Of a stretch of 64,000 nt of DNA, positions 34,924 to 46,990 are shown one piece after another. The notes beneath the pieces were generated by a model. The model was not told the origin of the DNA, did not search any database, and worked only from the letters and a program-made list of their open reading frames with translations. The position numbers and the translations under genes are program-made. This DNA comes from an uncultured Chlamydiales bacterium (GTDB lineage Bacteria > Chlamydiota > Chlamydiia > Chlamydiales > JAAKFR01): NCBI GenBank assembly GCA_963699155.1, contig OY969414.1, forward strand, positions 1,963,757-2,027,756, read 5' to 3'. Position 1 is the first letter of the stretch, and every line of letters begins with the position of its first letter.

Positions 34924-36165
34924 CTAATGATTGACTGCAGATCTTAGCCCGCGATCTCTGAATCCCCAATGCATCAGGAAATAAGAGATGAGCACAGCGA
35001 TCAGGCCTATCAGAGCAGGAAGGTAAGAGCCGAGAGCGACAAGGTGGCCGCCGAAGAGAGGTGTGACAATGAAGACCATCGATTCGAGAGACTGAAGCAT
35101 CCCTAGAACCTCCTCCTGGTTCTCTTTCGGTACGATTGCAGAAATCGCAGTCACAGCCTGCGAAAAGAGAAGGGCCAAAAAGTACTGCTGCAGAGGAATC
35201 AGCAGCCAAATGATGATCACATTGACCTTCCAGATGAATGGAACTAGAGAAAAGCCAATGGCTAAGAGAGAGAAGGAGACTACATTAGTAGCCGAAAACT
35301 TATTGAGAATGGGACGGATGAGAAGCCCTGAGCTGATGGCAAAACAAACAGCTGCATAGATATAGAAATAACCGATCTCCCTCTCGCCTAAGCTGTAGCC
35401 TCCCACCAAGGTGACGGAGATGAATTCAAAATAGAAGGACCAGCCCACTGAAAAGATAAAGAGACTTAAGAAGCAGACCCGGATCAAGGGGTTCTTCAGG
35501 ATTGTTTTTAAACTTTTCTTCAGGGAAATCCCAGCTAACAAGTGCTTAGCAGGCCCAAAACCCTTTACTGTGAGATTCTTCCTAAAAATAAAGATAAAGA
35601 TGACAAAGCTGAGGACACTGATGAGCCCTGCTACTATGAAGGGGATTGTCATCTCACCCATGTTGGTGCCAAACCCGCCCCAGAGTGGCCAAATCGCAAA
35701 ACTCAGCGAGTTCAACAGGCTGGCAAAGTTCAGATTGATCGGCCTGTCGGAAGGGTGTCTCAAATCGGCGAGGGCGCTATTGATAATCCCTGAGTTCGAG
35801 CTTCCCACGCCCACGATGATCTGGCCCAGGAGGATCATCCAGAGGTTTCTCTGCAATAGGCCACAGGTCGATAGGGAATAGCCTGAAGCGGTAATGCCAA
35901 AGGTGACCCTCAGGAAGGGCGACCTTTCTACTTTTTCAGGAGCCATCCCTACAAAAATGGCACAGAGAAACTGCATGAGAGGGCACGCAGCCAGCAGTGC
36001 TGCCATCCAGAGCCATCTGAACATAGAGGAGCTATGGGCATCTAAGAAATAAAAATCGCCCTGGAAACCGATGGACGAGTAGATAGGGTAGATAAAGCCA
36101 ATGCTGAGCCAATCCACGAAGGCCAGAAGTAGGAGAAAAAGTAATGAGAGCTTTGCTATCCCCAT
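34924..36165 (-). CDS. MFS transporter (TetA-like)
   Basis: About 12 TMs, 413 aa, degenerate motif A. Confidence 0.8.
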   Translation of the reverse strand: MGIAKLSLLFLLLLAFVDWLSIGFIYPIYSSIGFQGDFYFLDAHSSSMFRWLWMAALLAACPLMQFLCAIFVGMAPEKVERSPFLRVTFGITASGYSLSTCGLLQRNLWMILLGQIIVGVGSSNSGIINSALADLRHPSDRPINLNFASLLNSLSFAIWPLWGGFGTNMGEMTIPFIVAGLISVLSFVIFIFIFRKNLTVKGFGPAKHLLAGISLKKSLKTILKNPLIRVCFLSLFIFSVGWSFYFEFISVTLVGGYSLGEREIGYFYIYAAVCFAISSGLLIRPILNKFSATNVVSFSLLAIGFSLVPFIWKVNVIIIWLLIPLQQYFLALLFSQAVTAISAIVPKENQEEVLGMLQSLESMVFIVTPLFGGHLVALGSYLPALIGLIAVLISYFLMHWGFRDRGLRSAVNH

Positions 36166-37384
36166 TCACCAACTCTGAAAGTGAAAAAGTATAGATAATA
36201 TGAAGGATTATGCAAGGCCTTTTTCCATTTTTCTGAAAATAGACCTTTTGCACCCCTCCCACAGAGGAGAAAGCGGCACTTTTATCAAAAATATAGCAAA
36301 AAAGCAGGCCGGGAGAATTGGGTAGACCTGGACCCCGCTTAGAATAACCAGTTACGGTCATTTTATCTAAATCGACGGTTTCTATTATTGCAGCATAACT
36401 AGCTAGATCATTATCTGCCCAGTCCTGCTGGGCAATCAGCCAGGGTGTTTTGCCTCCTTTATAGCTATTAGGCCTTTCTAAATTGAAAAAGAGTCGGTAG
36501 CTCTCAGCTTTTCGGATAAAATCTTCCCTAGATTCAAATTTAGCAATATCAAAAAACTCTGTCTCAATAAGGTTGTGGAGACTTTCCACATCGCCATTTG
36601 CATTGCACAGCTTCGGAGGAATGAAGAGATGCTCTCCGCCATGGGCCTGCACAGCTTGGCAAAAGGGAGATTTCTCAAAATGTCTTGTTGTTCCTCCAAA
36701 TTCCACACCATTATCTGTTTGCACAATGATCTTTTTATCGGGCATTTGTGAGCGTAAGCGTCTTAACACATAATCGATCATCGTTCTCGCATTAAGTTCT
36801 GAAAGCTCATCCGAAAAGCCTAGAAAGAGCATACCTGATTTGGTATCTCTCACAGTGTATTGAAAACGTGGAAGCTTTAAAGGGTTAAGTTGTCCCCAGT
36901 AGTTAGGAATATCCCTTAAATACTTTAAATCCATTTGCATATGACCAAAAGCCTGATACTTTGCTTTAGCCTCTCTCAAATCGTTCTTCTTTTGATATTT
37001 TTTGCGTCTCTTGACAGTGAGACCGTTTTGTTTAAGCACCCTGTAGATAGCATCTAATGAGCACTCTATATTGAAAAAATACTTCAATCTTCTGGGGCCA
37101 TAACAAGGCACTTCGTGGCGGGCTTGGATAATTTTCTTCTCTAGCTCTGGGGAAATCTTGTGGGGAATATGGTTAGGGCCTTTTCTTTTGTCATAAAGAC
37201 CTTTATTCCCTTCCGCTTCAAAGTTTCTCAACCAACGTCGGATGGTATTTCTACCTAAGCCCCACCTTCTCATCGCAGGCTTAATTCCTTCTGCTTGAGC
37301 ACTTTTAACAACCTGCTTCTTAAATTGAAAAAGATATTCTTGCGGTGTTCCTTTCATCATCATACTATATGTGCTGAGCCCCAT
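36032..37384 (-). CDS. DDE (rve) transposase reading through the IS end
   Basis: N-terminal HTH; MQMDLK, QTDNGVEF, NGDVES catalytic triad; no stop codon within the element. Confidence 0.9.
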   Translation of the reverse strand: MGLSTYSMMMKGTPQEYLFQFKKQVVKSAQAEGIKPAMRRWGLGRNTIRRWLRNFEAEGNKGLYDKRKGPNHIPHKISPELEKKIIQARHEVPCYGPRRLKYFFNIECSLDAIYRVLKQNGLTVKRRKKYQKKNDLREAKAKYQAFGHMQMDLKYLRDIPNYWGQLNPLKLPRFQYTVRDTKSGMLFLGFSDELSELNARTMIDYVLRRLRSQMPDKKIIVQTDNGVEFGGTTRHFEKSPFCQAVQAHGGEHLFIPPKLCNANGDVESLHNLIETEFFDIAKFESREDFIRKAESYRLFFNLERPNSYKGGKTPWLIAQQDWADNDLASYAAIIETVDLDKMTVTGYSKRGPGLPNSPGLLFCYIFDKSAAFSSVGGVQKVYFQKNGKRPCIILHIIYTFSLSELVNGDSKALITFSPTSGLRGLAQHWLYLPYLLVHRFPGRFLFLRCP

Positions 37385-37567
37385 ATGACCTCTCTTAAGT
37401 TTACAAGATAAGACAGCTTATGCGGGCTCAATTTTTCAATAAAGTCTTATAATCCCGTTATTCTCTTAATCCCGAAAATTTTTTCCTTTAGCCTTTCAAA
37501 AGAGACGGTTCCCATGCAACTTAAGTGTTCTAATTTTGAGGGGTCCAGCTTTTCCCAGGTGTTACCA
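36310..37567 (-). mobile_element. Insertion sequence copy 1 (IS481/IS1202-like), 1258 bp
   Basis: Matches 40621-41878 (one difference seen); flanked by the 15-bp direct repeat AGCAAAAAAGCAGGC (36295-36309/37568-37582); imperfect IRs sharing TGGG.A.A.CTGGACCCC. Confidence 0.92.
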
Positions 37568-37621
37568 AGCAAAAAAGCAGGCCTTAATTATTTTTTAATA
37601 AAAAGCACTTATAATAGATGT

Positions 37622-37933
37622 ATGAATCCAATTAGTTTAGCACAAGCTTATACAGAAGGACGCCTTACTCCAGAGGGAGAAAAAACCCGAAACCGCTTGA
37701 TTGTGGCCTCAGTCATCAGCGCACTTTTTGCAGCTGCATCGATAGCCCTGCTCACTTATTTCGCAGTTTGTAAATCTTCTTTTGCCGGTTTTGGAGCTCT
37801 CGGAGGGACGTTCAGTCTAGGTCTACTTGGAGTCTGTATCTACACAATTCATGGTCCCCTAAGACCGCATGAGGCATCCGAGATGGTTAACTCTTCTCCA
37901 CCCAACGAACAGTTATTATTGAATGCCGCCTGA
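37622..37933 (+). CDS. Small Inc-like membrane protein
   Basis: Bilobed hydrophobic segment; the ORF-track start at 37514 lies inside the IS, so the ATG at 37622 is preferred. Confidence 0.65.
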   Translation: MNPISLAQAYTEGRLTPEGEKTRNRLIVASVISALFAAASIALLTYFAVCKSSFAGFGALGGTFSLGLLGVCIYTIHGPLRPHEASEMVNSSPPNEQLLLNAA

Positions 37934-37946
37934 GCGAGGGCATCTT

Positions 37947-38984
37947 CTAGAAATTACGTCCAATGATAAATAAGAGAGCGAGATTGGTTTTGGGTTGATG
38001 ACCATTGAGCTGTTGTACGAGAGGGATTCCGATACCTCCTTGTAAAATCCATTTCTTTGTGGAGTACCAAAGTGAAGGGGTCATCAAAAGCACATTGCCG
38101 CCCGAATTTCGATCGATGAGACCGTTAATCCGATTTTTCTTAGTATATGTGCCATCAATTTCCACCATCCATGCAAAAATCATCCGATCTTTGCGCGCAC
38201 AGATCACTTTTTCGAAGCCCCATTGGTAGAGAAATTGGTCTCCAAATTTTGATCGATGATTTTCCGTAGAAAAGAGCTCTCCTGTAGAAAAGAAAGCATA
38301 CCACCATCGATCGGTATGGCTGAAGGTTCCGCCAAGGAAAAATGAGGGAGCTCCAAAACCGGTGGGAGGCTCCTTATCAGGATCGCCTGAGGGATAGAGA
38401 ATAGTAGCGACAACGGTGGCTTGATTGGAGTAACACTTTGTCGTGTAGGTATAGTAAGCATATTCGAATTGCAGAACGATGTCCCCTAGTCCCGCAGAAG
38501 TCTGGTCATCTATGTGATTCTCAAGAATAAACGGAAGCTGGAGATAGATATCGACCTGGTCTGTAACCCCATATAAAATGGAGGGAAGCAACGTCGAAGT
38601 GAGTAGGCGATTCCCCCAAAATAGATTACCTACGAGATAATATTGGAGTACATCTGTGCCTGCGACCAACTGTCCAAAACCGATAAGAGGAGCGATTTGT
38701 TGTGAGGTGGGAAGAGAAAAATTTCCAATAGTAAGGGGCGTTGGCCCATGTTTGGACTCGGTTGTTGTCTCTTCTGCAGGCTTCTCCTCCTCTTTTTTAG
38801 TTTCCTCCTTTTCATCTTTTTTCTCTGTTTGGGTAGAGCTCTCCTTTTCAGTTTTTTCCTCAGCTTTGGCTGGCTCTGTCGATTTGGTCTCCTCTTCGCT
38901 ATCTTTTCCACTCAGCGAAAATGGCAGGAAGAGAAATAGGCCGATGAGAACTAATAGTGATTTGACTCTAAGCATAGTATTCAC
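37947..38984 (-). CDS. Exported outer-membrane beta-barrel-like protein
   Basis: Signal peptide, E/K-rich linker, GLGDI and PSG motifs, terminal Phe. Confidence 0.7.
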   Translation of the reverse strand: MNTMLRVKSLLVLIGLFLFLPFSLSGKDSEEETKSTEPAKAEEKTEKESSTQTEKKDEKEETKKEEEKPAEETTTESKHGPTPLTIGNFSLPTSQQIAPLIGFGQLVAGTDVLQYYLVGNLFWGNRLLTSTLLPSILYGVTDQVDIYLQLPFILENHIDDQTSAGLGDIVLQFEYAYYTYTTKCYSNQATVVATILYPSGDPDKEPPTGFGAPSFFLGGTFSHTDRWWYAFFSTGELFSTENHRSKFGDQFLYQWGFEKVICARKDRMIFAWMVEIDGTYTKKNRINGLIDRNSGGNVLLMTPSLWYSTKKWILQGGIGIPLVQQLNGHQPKTNLALLFIIGRNF

Positions 38985-39009
38985 ATAGTTTTACTTGATC
39001 CAAAGGATA

Positions 39010-39813
39010 TTAATAAAGGATTTTTGGGTGGAGTTTTGTTGCGAGGAGCAGCAGACCAACGTAGAGAACGATGCCAAAAGCAAAATCTGTCACAAGACCA
39101 AAATGAGAGCTCTCTCCTATGATCATCAATGTGCGTAGTGCATCGACCTGGTAGGTGAGGGGGTTGATGATGGAAAGCACTTTGATCCACTGAGGCATCT
39201 TCTGGATAGGATAAAGGGCATTGCTCGCGAAAAAAAGAGGCATAATGACCATCTGTCCTATTCCCATAAAGCGCTCCCTTTTTTTAACGATCGAGGCAAT
39301 AATCAGCGAAAGGGTTGAAAAAATAGCACCGAAAAGCAGTGAGATGAGGATGACACCGATTATAGAGCCGACAGCGAGCTTGAGGTCAACCCGAAGGATG
39401 AGAGAGAGAATGTAGACGATGAGGACTTGGCTCAAGCCTCTTATTCCTGCCGCTGTCGATCGCCCGATAATGATCAATATCCGAGGTGTGGGTGTGACCA
39501 AGGTTTTGTGTAAACTGCCAGCATCCCGTTCCCAAATGAGTGCAATCCCATAAAAAATAGCGACGAGCAGAATGCTTTGGGCCAAAATTCCTGGCACCAT
39601 GAAGTCAAGATAAGAAGGCTCTCCCAGACCCGGTGTCAACATTTTTGCCATTGCTTGGCCAAAGATCAGAATCCAGATAAGGGGCTGGAACATGCGTATG
39701 AAGAGCTGACTCGGATCATGTTTCAATTTGCACATGTCAGCTCCGACGATGGCAAAAATCTGGTTGATCCCTCTAATCAAGCTGTGAATATGTCCTGCGA
39801 GTCTCTTTTGCAA
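39010..39813 (-). CDS. ABC-2 type exporter permease
   Basis: QPLIW, YLDFMVPGI, INPLTYQVDALR. Confidence 0.92.
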   Translation of the reverse strand: MQKRLAGHIHSLIRGINQIFAIVGADMCKLKHDPSQLFIRMFQPLIWILIFGQAMAKMLTPGLGEPSYLDFMVPGILAQSILLVAIFYGIALIWERDAGSLHKTLVTPTPRILIIIGRSTAAGIRGLSQVLIVYILSLILRVDLKLAVGSIIGVILISLLFGAIFSTLSLIIASIVKKRERFMGIGQMVIMPLFFASNALYPIQKMPQWIKVLSIINPLTYQVDALRTLMIIGESSHFGLVTDFAFGIVLYVGLLLLATKLHPKILY

Positions 39814-40567
39814 GCTGAAATGTCCCTCCCTCCACTGTTGCCCCTGTCAGTTTGATGAAAACATCATCGAGAGTTCCTCCAGGCCCAACCATCGCTTTGA
39901 GTCGCTCAGGTGTGTCGATGGCCACAAGATGTCCTAAATGCATAAAGCCGATGTGATCGCATAATCTGTCAGCTTCATCCATATCATGCGTGGTCAGCAG
40001 AAAAGTGGTGCCAAAATGAGAACGCCACTCCTGAATGCTCTGCCAAAGCGATTTCCGAGCCGAAGGATCTAAACCCACTGTCGGTTCATCAAGAAAAAGG
40101 AGGGCGGGTTCGTGGAGAACCGCTTGAGCAATTTCGAGACGACGAATCATCCCTCCGGAATACTCACTGACAAGCTTGTCAGCCGCCTCCGATAGACCCA
40201 TAAACAGAAGAACACTCTCGATACGCTCTTTCAACGCCTTTCGTGACAGTCCATATAACTTCCCAGAGAGCACAAGATTCTCATATCCTGTCAGGTCGCC
40301 ATCTGCCGAAAGCGTTTGCGGTACATAACCAATCTGCTCACGTACCTTCGACGGCTCCTTCACGATATCATACCCTCTGATCTTTGCCGTCCCTGATGTG
40401 GGCGGCAGTAGGGTCGTCAACATTTTAATCGTTGTACTTTTTCCTGCCCCATTTGGTCCCAACAAACCAAAAATTTGCCCCTGCTTCACTTCAAAGGAAA
40501 TCTGATCGACAGCCATAACTGATCGATATCGACGGCTCAATTTTTGCACTTCAATCACATTTTCCAT
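39773..40567 (-). CDS. ABC exporter ATP-binding protein (DrrA-like)
   Basis: GPNGAGKST, YSGGM, LFLDEPT. Confidence 0.95.
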   Translation of the reverse strand: MENVIEVQKLSRRYRSVMAVDQISFEVKQGQIFGLLGPNGAGKSTTIKMLTTLLPPTSGTAKIRGYDIVKEPSKVREQIGYVPQTLSADGDLTGYENLVLSGKLYGLSRKALKERIESVLLFMGLSEAADKLVSEYSGGMIRRLEIAQAVLHEPALLFLDEPTVGLDPSARKSLWQSIQEWRSHFGTTFLLTTHDMDEADRLCDHIGFMHLGHLVAIDTPERLKAMVGPGGTLDDVFIKLTGATVEGGTFQLAKETRRTYSQLD

Positions 40568-40606
40568 AGTTTTACAGAGTTACCATTTTCCCCCTTTTTC
40601 GCCTAA

Positions 40607-41695
40607 TCAATCGTCATCAGCGGGAGAATTGGGTAGACCTGGACCCCGCTTAGAATAACCAGTTACGGTCATTTTATCTAAATCGACGGTTTCTATTATT
40701 GCAGCATAACTAGCTAGATCATTATCTGCCCAGTCCTGCTGGGCAATCAGCCAGGGTGTTTTGCCTCCTTTATAGCTATTAGGCCTTTCTAAATTGAAAA
40801 AGAGTCGGTAGCTCTCAGCTTTTCGGATAAAATCTTCCCTAGATTCAAATTTAGCAATATCAAAAAACTCTGTCTCAATAAGGTTGTGGAGACTTTCCAC
40901 ATCGCCATTTGCATTGCACAGCTTCGGAGGAATGAAGAGATGCTCTCCGCCATGGGCCTGCACAGCTTGGCAAAAGGGAGATTTCTCAAAATGTCTTGTT
41001 GTTCCTCCAAATTCCACACCATTATCTGTTTGCACAATGATCTTTTTATCGGGCATTTGTGAGCGTAAGCGTCTTAACACATAATCGATCATCGTTCTCG
41101 CATTAAGTTCTGAAAGCTCATCCGAAAAGCCTAGAAAGAGCATACCTGATTTGGTATCTCTCACAGTGTATTGAAAACGTGGAAGCTTTAAAGGTTTAAG
41201 TTGTCCCCAGTAGTTAGGAATATCCCTTAAATACTTTAAATCCATTTGCATATGACCAAAAGCCTGATACTTTGCTTTAGCCTCTCTCAAATCGTTCTTC
41301 TTTTGATATTTTTTGCGTCTCTTGACAGTGAGACCGTTTTGTTTAAGCACCCTGTAGATAGCATCTAATGAGCACTCTATATTGAAAAAATACTTCAATC
41401 TTCTGGGGCCATAACAAGGCACTTCGTGGCGGGCTTGGATAATTTTCTTCTCTAGCTCTGGGGAAATCTTGTGGGGAATATGGTTAGGGCCTTTTCTTTT
41501 GTCATAAAGACCTTTATTCCCTTCCGCTTCAAAGTTTCTCAACCAACGTCGGATGGTATTTCTACCTAAGCCCCACCTTCTCATCGCAGGCTTAATTCCT
41601 TCTGCTTGAGCACTTTTAACAACCTGCTTCTTAAATTGAAAAAGATATTCTTGCGGTGTTCCTTTCATCATCATACTATATGTGCTGAGCCCCAT
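40607..41695 (-). CDS. DDE transposase (copy 2)
   Basis: Identical to copy 1 except N/K at WGQLxP and the flank-derived C-terminus ADDD. Confidence 0.92.
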   Translation of the reverse strand: MGLSTYSMMMKGTPQEYLFQFKKQVVKSAQAEGIKPAMRRWGLGRNTIRRWLRNFEAEGNKGLYDKRKGPNHIPHKISPELEKKIIQARHEVPCYGPRRLKYFFNIECSLDAIYRVLKQNGLTVKRRKKYQKKNDLREAKAKYQAFGHMQMDLKYLRDIPNYWGQLKPLKLPRFQYTVRDTKSGMLFLGFSDELSELNARTMIDYVLRRLRSQMPDKKIIVQTDNGVEFGGTTRHFEKSPFCQAVQAHGGEHLFIPPKLCNANGDVESLHNLIETEFFDIAKFESREDFIRKAESYRLFFNLERPNSYKGGKTPWLIAQQDWADNDLASYAAIIETVDLDKMTVTGYSKRGPGLPNSPADDD

Positions 41696-41878
41696 ATGAC
41701 CTCTCTTAAGTTTACAAGATAAGACAGCTTATGCGGGCTCAATTTTTCAATAAAGTCTTATAATCCCGTTATTCTCTTAATCCCGAAAATTTTTTCCTTT
41801 AGCCTTTCAAAAGAGACGGTTCCCATGCAACTTAAGTGTTCTAATTTTGAGGGGTCCAGCTTTTCCCAGGTGTTACCA
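40621..41878 (-). mobile_element. Insertion sequence copy 2, 1258 bp
   Basis: Direct repeat (A)TCAATCGTCATCAG at 40606/7-40620 and 41878/9-41892. Confidence 0.92.
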
Positions 41879-41932
41879 TCAATCGTCATCAGATTAATTG
41901 TATCTTAATTATTTTTTGCTAAAATAATTTAC

Positions 41933-43380
41933 ATGAGTATTCGACGCCCGGAATTTGTTGAAATAGATCATAATCCGCGCCCCTTGAAGCGCGCTAGGGA
42001 AGAGGGTTCTCTTCCTCCTGAAATTCTTACTCTCATTTTTTCTTGGCTAGAAGCTGCCAAAGATTTTTATAGCTGTTTACAGGTTTGTCGTAGTTGGAGA
42101 GACAATCTCGATAAGACACCCTCATTTCGTTTTTTCAAATTTTCCCCTGCCCTGGCAATCTTCTATCCCGAGCTTTCTATTCAAAGGAGGGAAGCAGCCT
42201 CTAAAAAAGAGCCCCTCGCCCAGCTTCTAGACCGAGGGGATAGGATAAGGAAGCTCATGCAGCTGAAACCCGTTTTGAGGTTACAGCAATTTGGACAAGT
42301 TTTCTTAGAACGTATGACAGGTAAACAGGATCTATCAGAAGGAAGGGTTCTCTGTTCTGTAAGAAATGGATCGACACAACACAAACTCAAATGGCTCGAC
42401 TTGAAATCCTTGCAGCTTGAGGATTTTCCGTTGCAAGATTTTTTGTCTGGCGCAAACCAAAGGATTCAAAAAGCTATTGTCACTGCAATCACATCGGGCA
42501 CTCTTGTACAAGCAAGTTGCCTGGAAGATCGCTATTTGGTCTTCAGGAAATCCACAAATGAATTTTTTGTTCTTGATCGTATCGCTCGTAGAGTAGCGAT
42601 GCTCCACAATTCCCACTATCAAACTTCTCCTTATCTGATCTGGAATGATTCCCTCATCTATCGTCTTAAAAAAGCGCCTTCAAGAGAAGCTCATCAAAAT
42701 CATCTGGTCCGAGATTTGACCTTACAACTTTCACCTCATCTATTTTGACGCGATCAGAAGAAGTCACTACTGATTGCATTTTGAATTGCTCTGGACAAAG
42801 TGAATTTCTTCTTGTTGAAAACCAAGAGGGAATTACTCTTTTTGATCGAGAGTTTAAAAGAAGCTTAACTCTCGAGACGGACGCACAATTCGCTGTCTCG
42901 CATGATGGATTATTTATCAAAACTGAGGAGGGTCTTTCTCAATATTCATATGGGGATGGGAAATGGAGTGAAAAGAAACTCCCATCTACAAGTTGCGCTT
43001 TAAGTGGCGAGCTTCTCTATCCTACTATTTCATTTGCACAAGAAACGCAAGGTGAAGATGATTCTTGTTGGGAGGGCGAAGATGATCCCTATCTTTACCT
43101 TCTTAACAATATAAAATCTGCACAGTCTCTACTGGTACTTCACGCAAGTGAACCTATCACTTGCTATTGTTTTACCTTGATTGGCGATTATTTCCTTCAG
43201 CTTGTGAAGCACGACGGCAAATATAAGTTTTTGGGATCTAAGATAGGAGAAGGGACAAAAGAAATCGCTATCCCTATTAACGCTCCTTCCGACGAACTCT
43301 ATTTCGCACTTCATGACGACTGCCTTTTGCTCCAAGAAGGCGACAGATTTAGCCTCTTCCAATTCACTGAAAGCTCATAA
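41933..43380 (+). pseudogene. F-box domain effector split by a frameshift
   Basis: LPPEILTLIFSWL...LQVCRSWR F-box; ORFs 41933-42748 and 42745-43380 join if 2 nt are removed at CGAGA near 42710-42714. Confidence 0.7.
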
Positions 43381-46719: not shown

Positions 46720-46908
46720 CTGGATTTACCTTATTGTAGCAAATCTACATATTAAAATCAAGATATTACAAGTTTCCGAGGAAAAACTGCAATGAAAATG
46801 TAAGATTTTTTCAAAAAAGCTGAGATCCCCTATAAGACCTAGAGAGAACCCTCCGCTCTTGGATGATGAGAGCCAGAAGCTTGAAGAGCTTTTGCCCCAT
46901 GACAAATT

Positions 46909-46990
46909 GGGTATGCAAAGGGGCGTGCCCCTTTGCCGCGGTGAGAGGGGGTTTAGGGGGAGAGAGGTAGCGTTAGCCTCTCTCCCCCTA
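46909..46990. repeat. Intact short copy of the dispersed double-hairpin REP-like element
   Basis: GCAAAGGGGC-GT-GCCCCTTTGC followed by TAGGGGGAGAGAGG...CCTCTCTCCCCCTA; relatives at 618-841, 1832-2021, 2089-2234 and 47144-47169. Confidence 0.8.

Follow-up and report, generated by a model that had tools for sequence, protein, structure and literature searches.

Oriented insertion of an IS481-related element directly upstream of putative promoters in a Chlamydiales genome and in relatives from other phyla

A stretch of 64,000 nucleotides from an uncultured Chlamydiales bacterium (contig OY969414.1 of assembly GCA_963699155.1, positions 1,963,757 to 2,027,756; hereafter the window) contains two copies of an insertion sequence (IS) of 1258 bp. 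Comparison of these copies with the others in the genome (G000, a single contig of 2.40 Mb with 47.5% G+C) and with related insertions in other phyla indicated, with high confidence, that this element lands in one orientation upstream of predicted promoters. The explanation that we favor, and regard as fairly probable when taken as a whole, is that an IS481-related IS would integrate in one orientation directly upstream of sigma-70-type promoters under the guidance of the promoter itself, leaving the promoter and its gene intact. Coordinates of the two copies and their surroundings are those of the window, and all others are those of the genome.

Copy 1 occupies 36310-37567 and copy 2 occupies 40621-41878, both on the minus strand, and each was identified by BLAST as one of 11 full copies with 99.5-100% identity. 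Copy 1 is flanked by a target duplication of 15 bp (AGCAAAAAAGCAGGC) at 36295-36309 on the left, with the same letters at 37568-37582 on the right. The duplication of copy 2 (TCAATCGTCATCAG), at 40607-40620 and 41879-41892, is 14 bp long, or 15 bp if an ambiguous A at 40606 is counted. The termini of the IS read TGGTAAC... and CGGGAGA..., and its first base C and last base A are constant across all copies in the genome. In copy 1, the left end (CGGGAGAATTGGGTAGACCTGGACCCC) is the one distal to the transposase start, and the right end is the proximal one (TGGTAACACCTGGGAAAAGCTGGACCCC as reverse complement). A 1259-nt unitig of one DNA run (X1) spans exactly 40621-41878, so that the collapsed unitig stops at the IS ends. 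The sole long frame of the IS lies on the minus strand, starts at 37384 in copy 1 and 41695 in copy 2, and leaves the IS without having met a stop codon. The open frame spans 36032-37384 in copy 1 (450 aa), running 278 nt past the left IS end, and 40607-41695 in copy 2 (362 aa), where the stop codon is found in the flank, 14 nt past the left end. The C-terminal tail of the transposase would thus be encoded by whatever DNA follows the distal end, and neighbouring minus-strand genes may be reached by transcription leaving the stopless frame. The same lack of a stop codon within the element was observed in 37 of 51 relatives.

Both copies sit in divergent intergenic regions, with the 5' end of the transposase frame at the right, facing a putative promoter on the plus strand. 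Promoter 1 (37583-37615) consists of C at 37583, TTAAT at 37584-37588, six bases, TTAAT at 37595-37599, ten bases and a -10 box, TATAAT, at 37610-37615. Promoter 2 (41893-41925) consists of A at 41893, TTAAT at 41894-41898, six bases, TTAAT at 41905-41909, ten bases ending in TGC, and TAAAAT at 41920-41925. In both cases the -10 box begins 28 nt past where the duplication ends, with the ATG at a distance of 55 nt from the end of the IS. The coordinates that an earlier note on this window had given for the two copies, their duplications and the promoter features all match the sequence, and its claims that the copies inserted independently but with identical geometry, and that the transposase 5' end points toward the promoter in both, were confirmed. 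The hexamers which it took for -35-like elements (TTATTT at 37588 and TTGTAT at 41898) were not the conserved elements; these are the TTAAT boxes at +1 and +12. The string CTTAATTATTTTTT, reported as common to both flanks, is present in both but in different registers, in box 1 for copy 1 and in box 2 for copy 2.

Besides the 11 full copies, the genome was found to hold one copy truncated at 746 nt and, by pattern search, an additional solo IS end of 24 bp. All 12 transposase-proximal ends face one layout, C-TTAAT-N6-TTAAT-N10-TAnnnT, with the -10 box at 27 (±1-2) nt past the duplication. For all 11 full copies, the duplication is followed by C, A or G and a TTAAT-like box, 6 bases, a second TTAAT-like box, about 10 bases and TAnnnT. 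TAnnnT at +26 to +28 was present in 10 of 11 promoter-side flanks versus 0 of 11 opposite flanks of the full copies, the eleventh copy having TATTTT at +29. This is far more than chance would give, since dinucleotide shuffles averaged 1.66 and never exceeded 6 in 500, and control windows on the genome's own flanks gave 0 (+10 to +12) and 2 (+36 to +38). In an alignment of the sites anchored at the -10 box, the three fixed bases of TAnnnT were conserved at 11/11 sites, the bases of box 1 at 8-10 and those of box 2 at 7-10, and the most common base at the 15 duplicated positions was shared by just 3-7 of 11. Spacer sequences vary from site to site, and an extended -10 (TGn) was seen by eye at five sites. 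Box 2 is degenerate or missing at some IS sites, with the -10 box still at the exact distance. The cut-adjacent hexamer was insufficient to define such a site: CTTAAT occurs 237 times outside long open reading frames (ORFs), with TAnnnT at +26 to +28 in 31 of these. Relaxed double boxes are accompanied by a -10 box in 100 of 530 cases, and IS sites with degenerate boxes nonetheless have one. The enrichment that the earlier note had predicted for the flanks of all copies was thus found for the -10 box (12/12 ends) and not for TTG at +6 in this genome. Neither random orientation nor a lack of positional enrichment, which that note had named as evidence against its claim, was observed; the orientation was single and 12/12 ends fitted.

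Among the 11 full copies, seven have duplications of 15 bp (six exact, and one with 1 mismatch that can also be read as 14 exact), two have 14 bp and two have none. Because the duplications of the nine copies are all different, these were regarded as independent insertions. The two copies without duplication (1940127-1941384 and 2042229-2043486) also have a TTAAT promoter on the proximal side; their flanks showed no reciprocal match to each other, and they presumably arose by recombination or rearrangement between IS copies. The truncated copy (1547747-1548492) adjoins the gene of a 275-aa sigma-70-family factor (1546631-1546777 being given alongside), one of three such factors in the genome, with open frames of 552 (551-aa ORF), 275 and 177 aa. 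The right flank of a copy had no DNA match in three genomes of the same genus (G001-G003, completeness 74-97%), where an empty site was sought, and no empty-site joint was seen in one DNA run, in which cover was low.

The oriented landing was also observed in relatives of the element. Relatives of the transposase numbered 356 at E<=1e-30, mostly on short metagenome contigs. A metagenome scan with the single transposase protein found no relative; an alignment-based scan gave 80 loci, which with 78 loci from genomes made 158 fetched loci. An insertion was regarded as validated if an exact direct repeat of 13-18 nt was found 1100-1700 nt apart and the enclosed ends had at least 17 complementary bases out of 30. 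In this way 51 of the 158 loci were validated and 107 were unused; removal of one short-flank locus and the duplicate L075, with the doubtful L059 and L070 kept, left 49 independent insertions from several phyla, with transposases 30-60% identical. The hosts, by record title, include Acidobacteriota, Spirochaetota, Pirellulales, Verrucomicrobiota, Cloacimonadales and Firestonebacteria, and the nearest relatives were found in metagenome-assembled genomes of Waddliaceae, Parachlamydiales and Chlamydiales. Just 2 of 40 host-related genomes gave matches, namely a copy cut at a contig end (L002) and a fragment.

In the flank at the transposase 5' end of the 49 insertions, 33% have TTG at +4 and 8% have it at +3, the opposite flank showing no peak; TTGACA with 5 or 6 matching bases starts at +3/+4 in 34%, where the background is about 0-2%. 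TAnnnT showed peaks at +26/27 (26%) and +22 (14%). The check in relatives called for by the earlier note thus gave the expected enrichment, with TTG/TTGACA at +3/+4 or -1 and TAnnnT at +26/27 or +22. The best promoter-like match (score >=8) started at -1 to +5 in 30 of 49 promoter-side flanks, and at +1 to +5 in 9 of 48 opposite flanks. A strict test, which asked for a -35 box (4 or more of 6 matches) starting at -1 to +5 and then TAnnnT at a spacer of 16-18, was passed by 16/49 promoter-side flanks versus 4/48 opposite flanks (dinucleotide shuffles: mean 1.7, maximum 6 in 300). Windows shifted on the same flank gave 1/49 (+9 to +15) and 3/49 (+16 to +22). A TTGACA-like -35 box at -1 to +5 was present in 33 of the 49, and 17 of these 33 also had a -10 box at a spacer of 16-18, compared with 4.0 in shuffles (maximum 10 in 1000). 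From these positional peaks, oriented landing beside putative promoters is a property of the IS481-related clade, and the relatives in other phyla adjoin what are, by sequence, ordinary TTGACA-N17-TATAAT promoters.

Several subgroups could be distinguished by the position of the promoter. In an acidobacterial subgroup (L033, L034, L042, L050, L051 and L061) the -35 box takes its first T from the duplication's final base, an offset of -1; in most other relatives (for example L025, L068, L079, L098 and L132) the -35 box is at +3/+4, shifted by half a helical turn. The closest relatives, with 48-61% identity, are often located at the chlamydial TTAAT layout (L104, L116, L119, L120, L121 and L096). 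In a spirochaete genome with many copies, TT(G/T)nnn was found near +3/+4 at 9/9 independent sites, one of which has it at +1 with a detected duplication of just 13 nt; several of the -10 boxes there are weak. At 11 further loci, placement was possible for the proximal end alone; TAnnnT occurred 41-43 nt from the tip in 6 of them, with 0-4 in control windows, which given the AT-rich flanks is weak evidence. Between subfamilies, the inverted repeats vary in their inner cores (TTGACCCC, CGTATCCCC, TAGTACCCC and CTGGACCCC), and the target remains a promoter. It was considered whether the target mimics the inverted repeat of the element; because the cores differ while the target stays the same, this was rejected, and in chlamydial relatives, whose core is TTGACC, the target is of the TTAAT class.

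The transposase is a single frame of at least 358 codons without frameshift, and combines an N-terminal helix-turn-helix (HTH) region with an rve-type DDE domain, as expected for IS481. In Pfam, HTH_32, HTH_28 and HTH_29 scored above their cut-offs, and rve_3 reached 23.9 bits, just below its cut-off of 26.5. The best NCBIfam model was IS481 (NF033577) with 142 bits, below the curated cut-off of 224; nine tested relatives scored 96-159 bits against the same cut-off, and IS481 was the best full-length model for all 10. NCBIfam ISNCY_2 (NF033594), which we take to be the model covering IS1202, matched the N-terminal HTH alone with 31 bits (relatives at most 38 bits; cut-off 250). Of the earlier assignment as IS481/IS1202-like, the model scores therefore favored the first half over the second. 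The AlphaFold model (mean pLDDT, predicted local distance difference test, of 79) matched IstA, the PFV (foamy-virus) and HIV integrases and TnsB in Foldseek, with E of about 1e-7. D224 and E267 are invariant and 43 residues apart, a spacing that would fit an insertion. For IS481, duplications of 2-15 bp, mostly 6 bp, are described (PMC10045372, as far as its accessible text goes). The 14-15 bp found here and the 13-18 bp found in relatives lie at the long end of this range. Termini 5'-TGT...ACA-3' are stated for IS3 and IS481 in the available portion of a preprint (bioRxiv 10.1101/2022.12.17.520857); the ends here differ, and in the relatives the proximal end is TGG while distally AGG, CGG or TGG is mostly seen. 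The duplication length also agrees with the 15-17 bp of the ISTde1 subgroup of IS1202, whose TGT ends are likewise absent. The element is, on these model-based grounds, assigned to a divergent IS481-related clade of insertion sequences with an rve-type DDE transposase.

The promoter class used by the element is not confined to the IS sites. The strict layout C-TTAAT-N6-TTAAT-N10-TATAAT was found at 33 sites genome-wide (for example 116531, 515299, 856100, 983386, 1057009, 1329341 and 1353750), IS-adjacent ones included, and at least 25 have no IS nearby. TTAAT followed by TAWAAT 21 nt later occurs 33 times, versus 4-16 at other spacings, and upstream of 891 TATAAT sites TTAAT peaks at 21 and 10 nt (24 and 25 sites), with 0-10, mostly 0-6, elsewhere. 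TTAAT-N6-TTAAT occurs 49 times, versus 4-15 at other spacings, and 29 of these 49 strict double boxes are accompanied by a -10 box. Separated by one helical turn, the two TTAAT boxes occupy the -35 position, as at a pho box. It is unlikely that TTAAT serves as a -35 box read by sigma66, as the spacer would be 20-21 nt; region 4.2 of sigma66 is presumably nearly the same as that of E. coli sigma70. The only OmpR/PhoB-type (Trans_reg_C) regulator of the genome (118716-119447, minus strand, locus L195) lies beside two TTAAT-class genes. It is a candidate for the TTAAT-box binder, against which it weighs that its own upstream region has AAGATTGTGTAAAG twice as a direct repeat, not TTAAT, and that the published Waddlia PhoB motif, in the part of the source available, is unlike the TTAAT boxes (PMC4989314).

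At most strict sites an ATG is found 6-31 nt after the -10 box. Window gene 1 (37622-37933, plus strand) encodes a protein of 103 aa that contains an Inc-like hydrophobic stretch and matches no Pfam family, and its ATG is 6 nt past the -10 box; window gene 2 (41933-42748, plus strand) encodes a 271-aa F-box-like protein (Pfam F-box-like, 42.6 bits), with the ATG 7 nt past the box. Together with the starts at 1848802, 1608969, 1473875, 980414 and 98426 (all minus strand), they make up 7 of 28 genes behind the motif whose ATG is just 6-7 nt past the -10 box, which suggests that the mRNAs of these seven, window genes 1 and 2 included, are possibly leaderless. The other leaders are 11-104 nt, mostly 22-31 nt, and a GGAG-type ribosome site was visible by eye upstream of several of the ATGs with a leader. 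Pfam analysis of 19 downstream proteins showed F-box domains in four, including window gene 2, one each of protein kinase, PARG-type macro, Macro and dual-specificity phosphatase, and one with weak ankyrin matches at or below the cut-offs; for the remainder no family exceeded its cut-off. By eye, an Inc-like hydrophobic stretch, often two-lobed, follows after about 30-40 residues in many of the 28 translated proteins. The TTAAT-class genes were read as a putative effector-type regulon with a common promoter motif, a description of which was not found in the literature searched.

The favored mechanism would operate as follows. The promoter-near cut falls about 27 bp upstream of the -10 box, which would be roughly at -40, and the second cut 15 bp further up, roughly at -55, where positions relative to the transcription start are derived from the -10 box. 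The transposase 5' end faces the promoter, so that the two are transcribed divergently, and the unequal ends (TGG versus CGG/AGG) would fix the orientation. In this genome the element uses a single promoter class, C-TTAAT-N6-TTAAT-N10-TATAAT, which would drive effector-type genes. The guide would be the promoter as a functional unit, most likely the promoter-bound RNA polymerase holoenzyme or the distortion of upstream DNA by it, and an activator on the TTAAT boxes may be part of the guiding complex in this genome. The transpososome would dock on the upstream face of the promoter complex, and the two strand transfers would bracket about -40 and -55. The target bases that are conserved best, 27-32 bp from the cut, are the ones in the -10 box that sigma reads; this was counted in favor of the promoter acting as a unit, as were the insufficiency of the cut-adjacent hexamer and the promoter target common to subfamilies with different repeat cores. 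Positioning by RNA polymerase/sigma66 or by promoter DNA, as proposed in the earlier note, likewise stands as an inference. That the target is chosen by the promoter complex rather than by a short sequence at the cut site is judged evenly balanced. The more specific proposal, that the promoter-bound transcription machinery holds the transposase by a physical tether and that the chlamydial branch was re-specialised to the TTAAT-TTAAT effector-promoter complex, is put forward only tentatively. A complex prediction of the transposase with sigma66 region 4 scored 0.00 with controls not run, and was taken as evidence neither way.

Several observations weigh against guidance by the promoter complex. 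Ordinary TTGnnn-N17-TAWAAT sites are in statistical excess by about 54 genome-wide, yet 12/12 ends use the TTAAT class. The excess suggests that ordinary promoters are at least as common; some sequence- or factor-specific component must therefore exist, and a guide consisting of any polymerase-bound promoter would not account for the pattern. The strict double boxes mostly have a -10 box anyway, and direct reading of the double box by a multi-HTH N-terminus could account for much of the co-occurrence with the -10 box here. At 16 of the 49 sites in relatives there is no -35-like hexamer at -1 to +5. The offset is subfamily-specific (-1 versus +3/+4), without a single universal geometry. In L002, which at 67% identity is the closest relative from a genome of the same family, both boxes are present, but the -10-like TATAAG is at +22, not +27. 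Finally, all promoters were deduced from DNA motifs.

Among the alternatives, the one that fares best is that the HTH domains or spare protomers of the transpososome directly bind the cut-adjacent TTAAT boxes in chlamydiae, or TTGACA in other hosts, and that the -10 box merely co-occurs; this was considered possible, though doubtful. Box 1 and box 2 are 1 nt and 12 nt from the cut, within reach of the transpososome, and the transposase has two or three HTH modules. The exclusive use of the TTAAT class (12/12), the -10 box present anyway at 29/49 strict double boxes and the TT(G/T)nnn at 9/9 spirochaete sites, several of them with weak -10 boxes, would also be expected. However, it is the three fixed bases of the -10 box (T, A, T) that are invariant; they lie 27-32 bp from the cut and are better conserved than either TTAAT box, and the -10 box remains at the exact distance where box 2 is degenerate or missing. 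In addition, transposases only 30-40% identical and with different repeat cores would all need to read TTGACA, and the -10 box is enriched given a -35 box (17/33 versus 4.0).

Survivorship, in which insertion would be near-random or AT-preferring and only harmless copies upstream of promoters would persist, agrees with the location of both window copies in divergent intergenic regions, as expected for surviving copies when the masking of long ORFs covers about 87% of the genome. Nevertheless, selection cannot yield base-pair precision (±1-2 nt, 12/12) or a single orientation, which rules this explanation out to a degree that makes it very improbable; neutral intergenic positions elsewhere are unused, and the shifted windows on the same flanks showed no enrichment (1/49 and 3/49). 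A promoter belonging to the element itself, carried to genes as part of a longer IS or an IS-plus-promoter cassette, would explain the constant distance from the same IS end, but is the least credible of all and is in effect ruled out, because a site-specific, differing duplication separates IS and promoter and no IS is near at least 25 further promoters of this class; the spacers also differ among sites, and the collapsed unitig stops at the IS ends.

Two families of MITEs (miniature inverted-repeat transposable elements) were observed at the same promoters. One, of about 400 bp with ends GTAAGT.GTCAGAAA.TGGAGG and an 8-bp duplication, is located at about 131816-132218, 541982-542389 and 1469686-1470078, with a solo end at 1941399. 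At four promoters its end lies 13-14 nt ahead of the C-TTAAT box, and at three of these the IS is also present, inserted between MITE and promoter. This MITE may be a second, unrelated promoter-homing element; no autonomous partner was found with the repeat pattern searched. The other, a TA-targeting MITE of about 190 bp (ACCTGAGTTTTGGGTTGATTTC...; for example about 1400994-1401180), has 13 copies, one of which sits in the first TTAAT box at the solo IS end, where the site read through the MITE is TTAATA-N20-TATTAT. The same MITE was found in box 2 beside a related IS on a metagenome contig (L096). The window also contains a cluster of GC-rich direct and inverted repeats of 49-102 nt at 1240-2234 and 46866-46967, and, by eye, sequence resembling it flanks several MITE copies in other parts of the genome.

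TnGBS, ISLre2 and the ISKra4 group, all of which have Mutator-like transposases, are described as inserting in one orientation 15-17 bp upstream of the -35 box (PMC3942029, in its accessible part). The distance from element end to -35 box is similar here, about 14-19 bp (the 15-bp duplication plus -1 to +4), and the differing ends (TGG versus CGG/AGG) may set the orientation, as the available text of that paper proposes for its own elements. By contrast, the transposase is unrelated, with an rve/retroviral-integrase fold rather than a Mutator-like DDE domain, the duplication is 15 bp, and the promoter class used in this genome has no -35 box. The element works like the p-MULT promoter-targeting elements without belonging to that family, as it lacks the Mutator-like signature. 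Within IS481, ISMac4 and ISA0963-1 have duplications of about 15 bp, according to the portion available of PMC10045372, in which the word 'promoter' is absent. Our element shares with them the single frame without frameshift, the 15-bp duplication and IS481 as best full-length model, and departs from IS481 in the 96-159 bits of its clade versus the NCBI cut-off of 224 and in termini that are TGG/CGG, not TGT.

In the accessible text on IS1202, an ISTde1 subgroup with 15-17-bp repeats and ends beginning with TGT (bioRxiv 10.1101/2022.12.17.520857) and an ISAba32 subgroup targeting XerCD sites (the same preprint; PMC10132070) are reported. These enzymes are related rve-type transposases with long duplications, and one subgroup inserts in an oriented way beside a protein-bound site with the duplication in between. 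ISNCY_2 matches the present element in the HTH alone, and xrs sites are the only targets reported in that text, for one subgroup, with no promoter targeting. Two large IS surveys mention IS481, in the parts available, only for orientation or adjacency biases (PMC9208149; bioRxiv 10.1101/2025.07.22.666184). No report of promoter targeting by an IS481-type element was found in the literature searched (main texts; ISfinder and TnPedia not covered), where promoter-directed bacterial transposition is documented only for the Mutator-like TnGBS, ISLre2 and ISKra4. Some eukaryotic retrotransposons, with integrases of the same fold class, also head for DNA that is promoter-proximal and gene-free. The Ty3 and Ty1 integrases are tethered at RNA polymerase III genes and that of Tf1 at polymerase II promoters; these elements differ in moving through an RNA intermediate and in having known protein tethers, whereas the tether of the present element is only proposed.

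Promoter-directed transposition at base-pair precision would accordingly be shared by an unrelated clade of the retroviral-integrase type that occurs in many phyla. The element would spread without breaking genes, landing upstream of the promoters of host-manipulation (effector-type) genes, and the DNA upstream of promoters would then amount to a 'safe haven' at which different transposases have arrived repeatedly and independently. The clade offers a second independent system for asking which promoter feature transposases sense, and the two cuts bracketing about -40 to -55 may help to explain the 15-bp duplications in part of the IS481/IS1202 group. The element flanks can serve as free promoter annotations in uncultured phyla, and those analysed here revealed a previously unnoticed promoter motif common to putative effector-type genes. 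If tethering is true, it would be a bacterial counterpart of Ty3/Ty1 integrase tethering; the IS copies would be natural markers of an undescribed effector regulon and its activator, and they would also drive recombination among effector loci.

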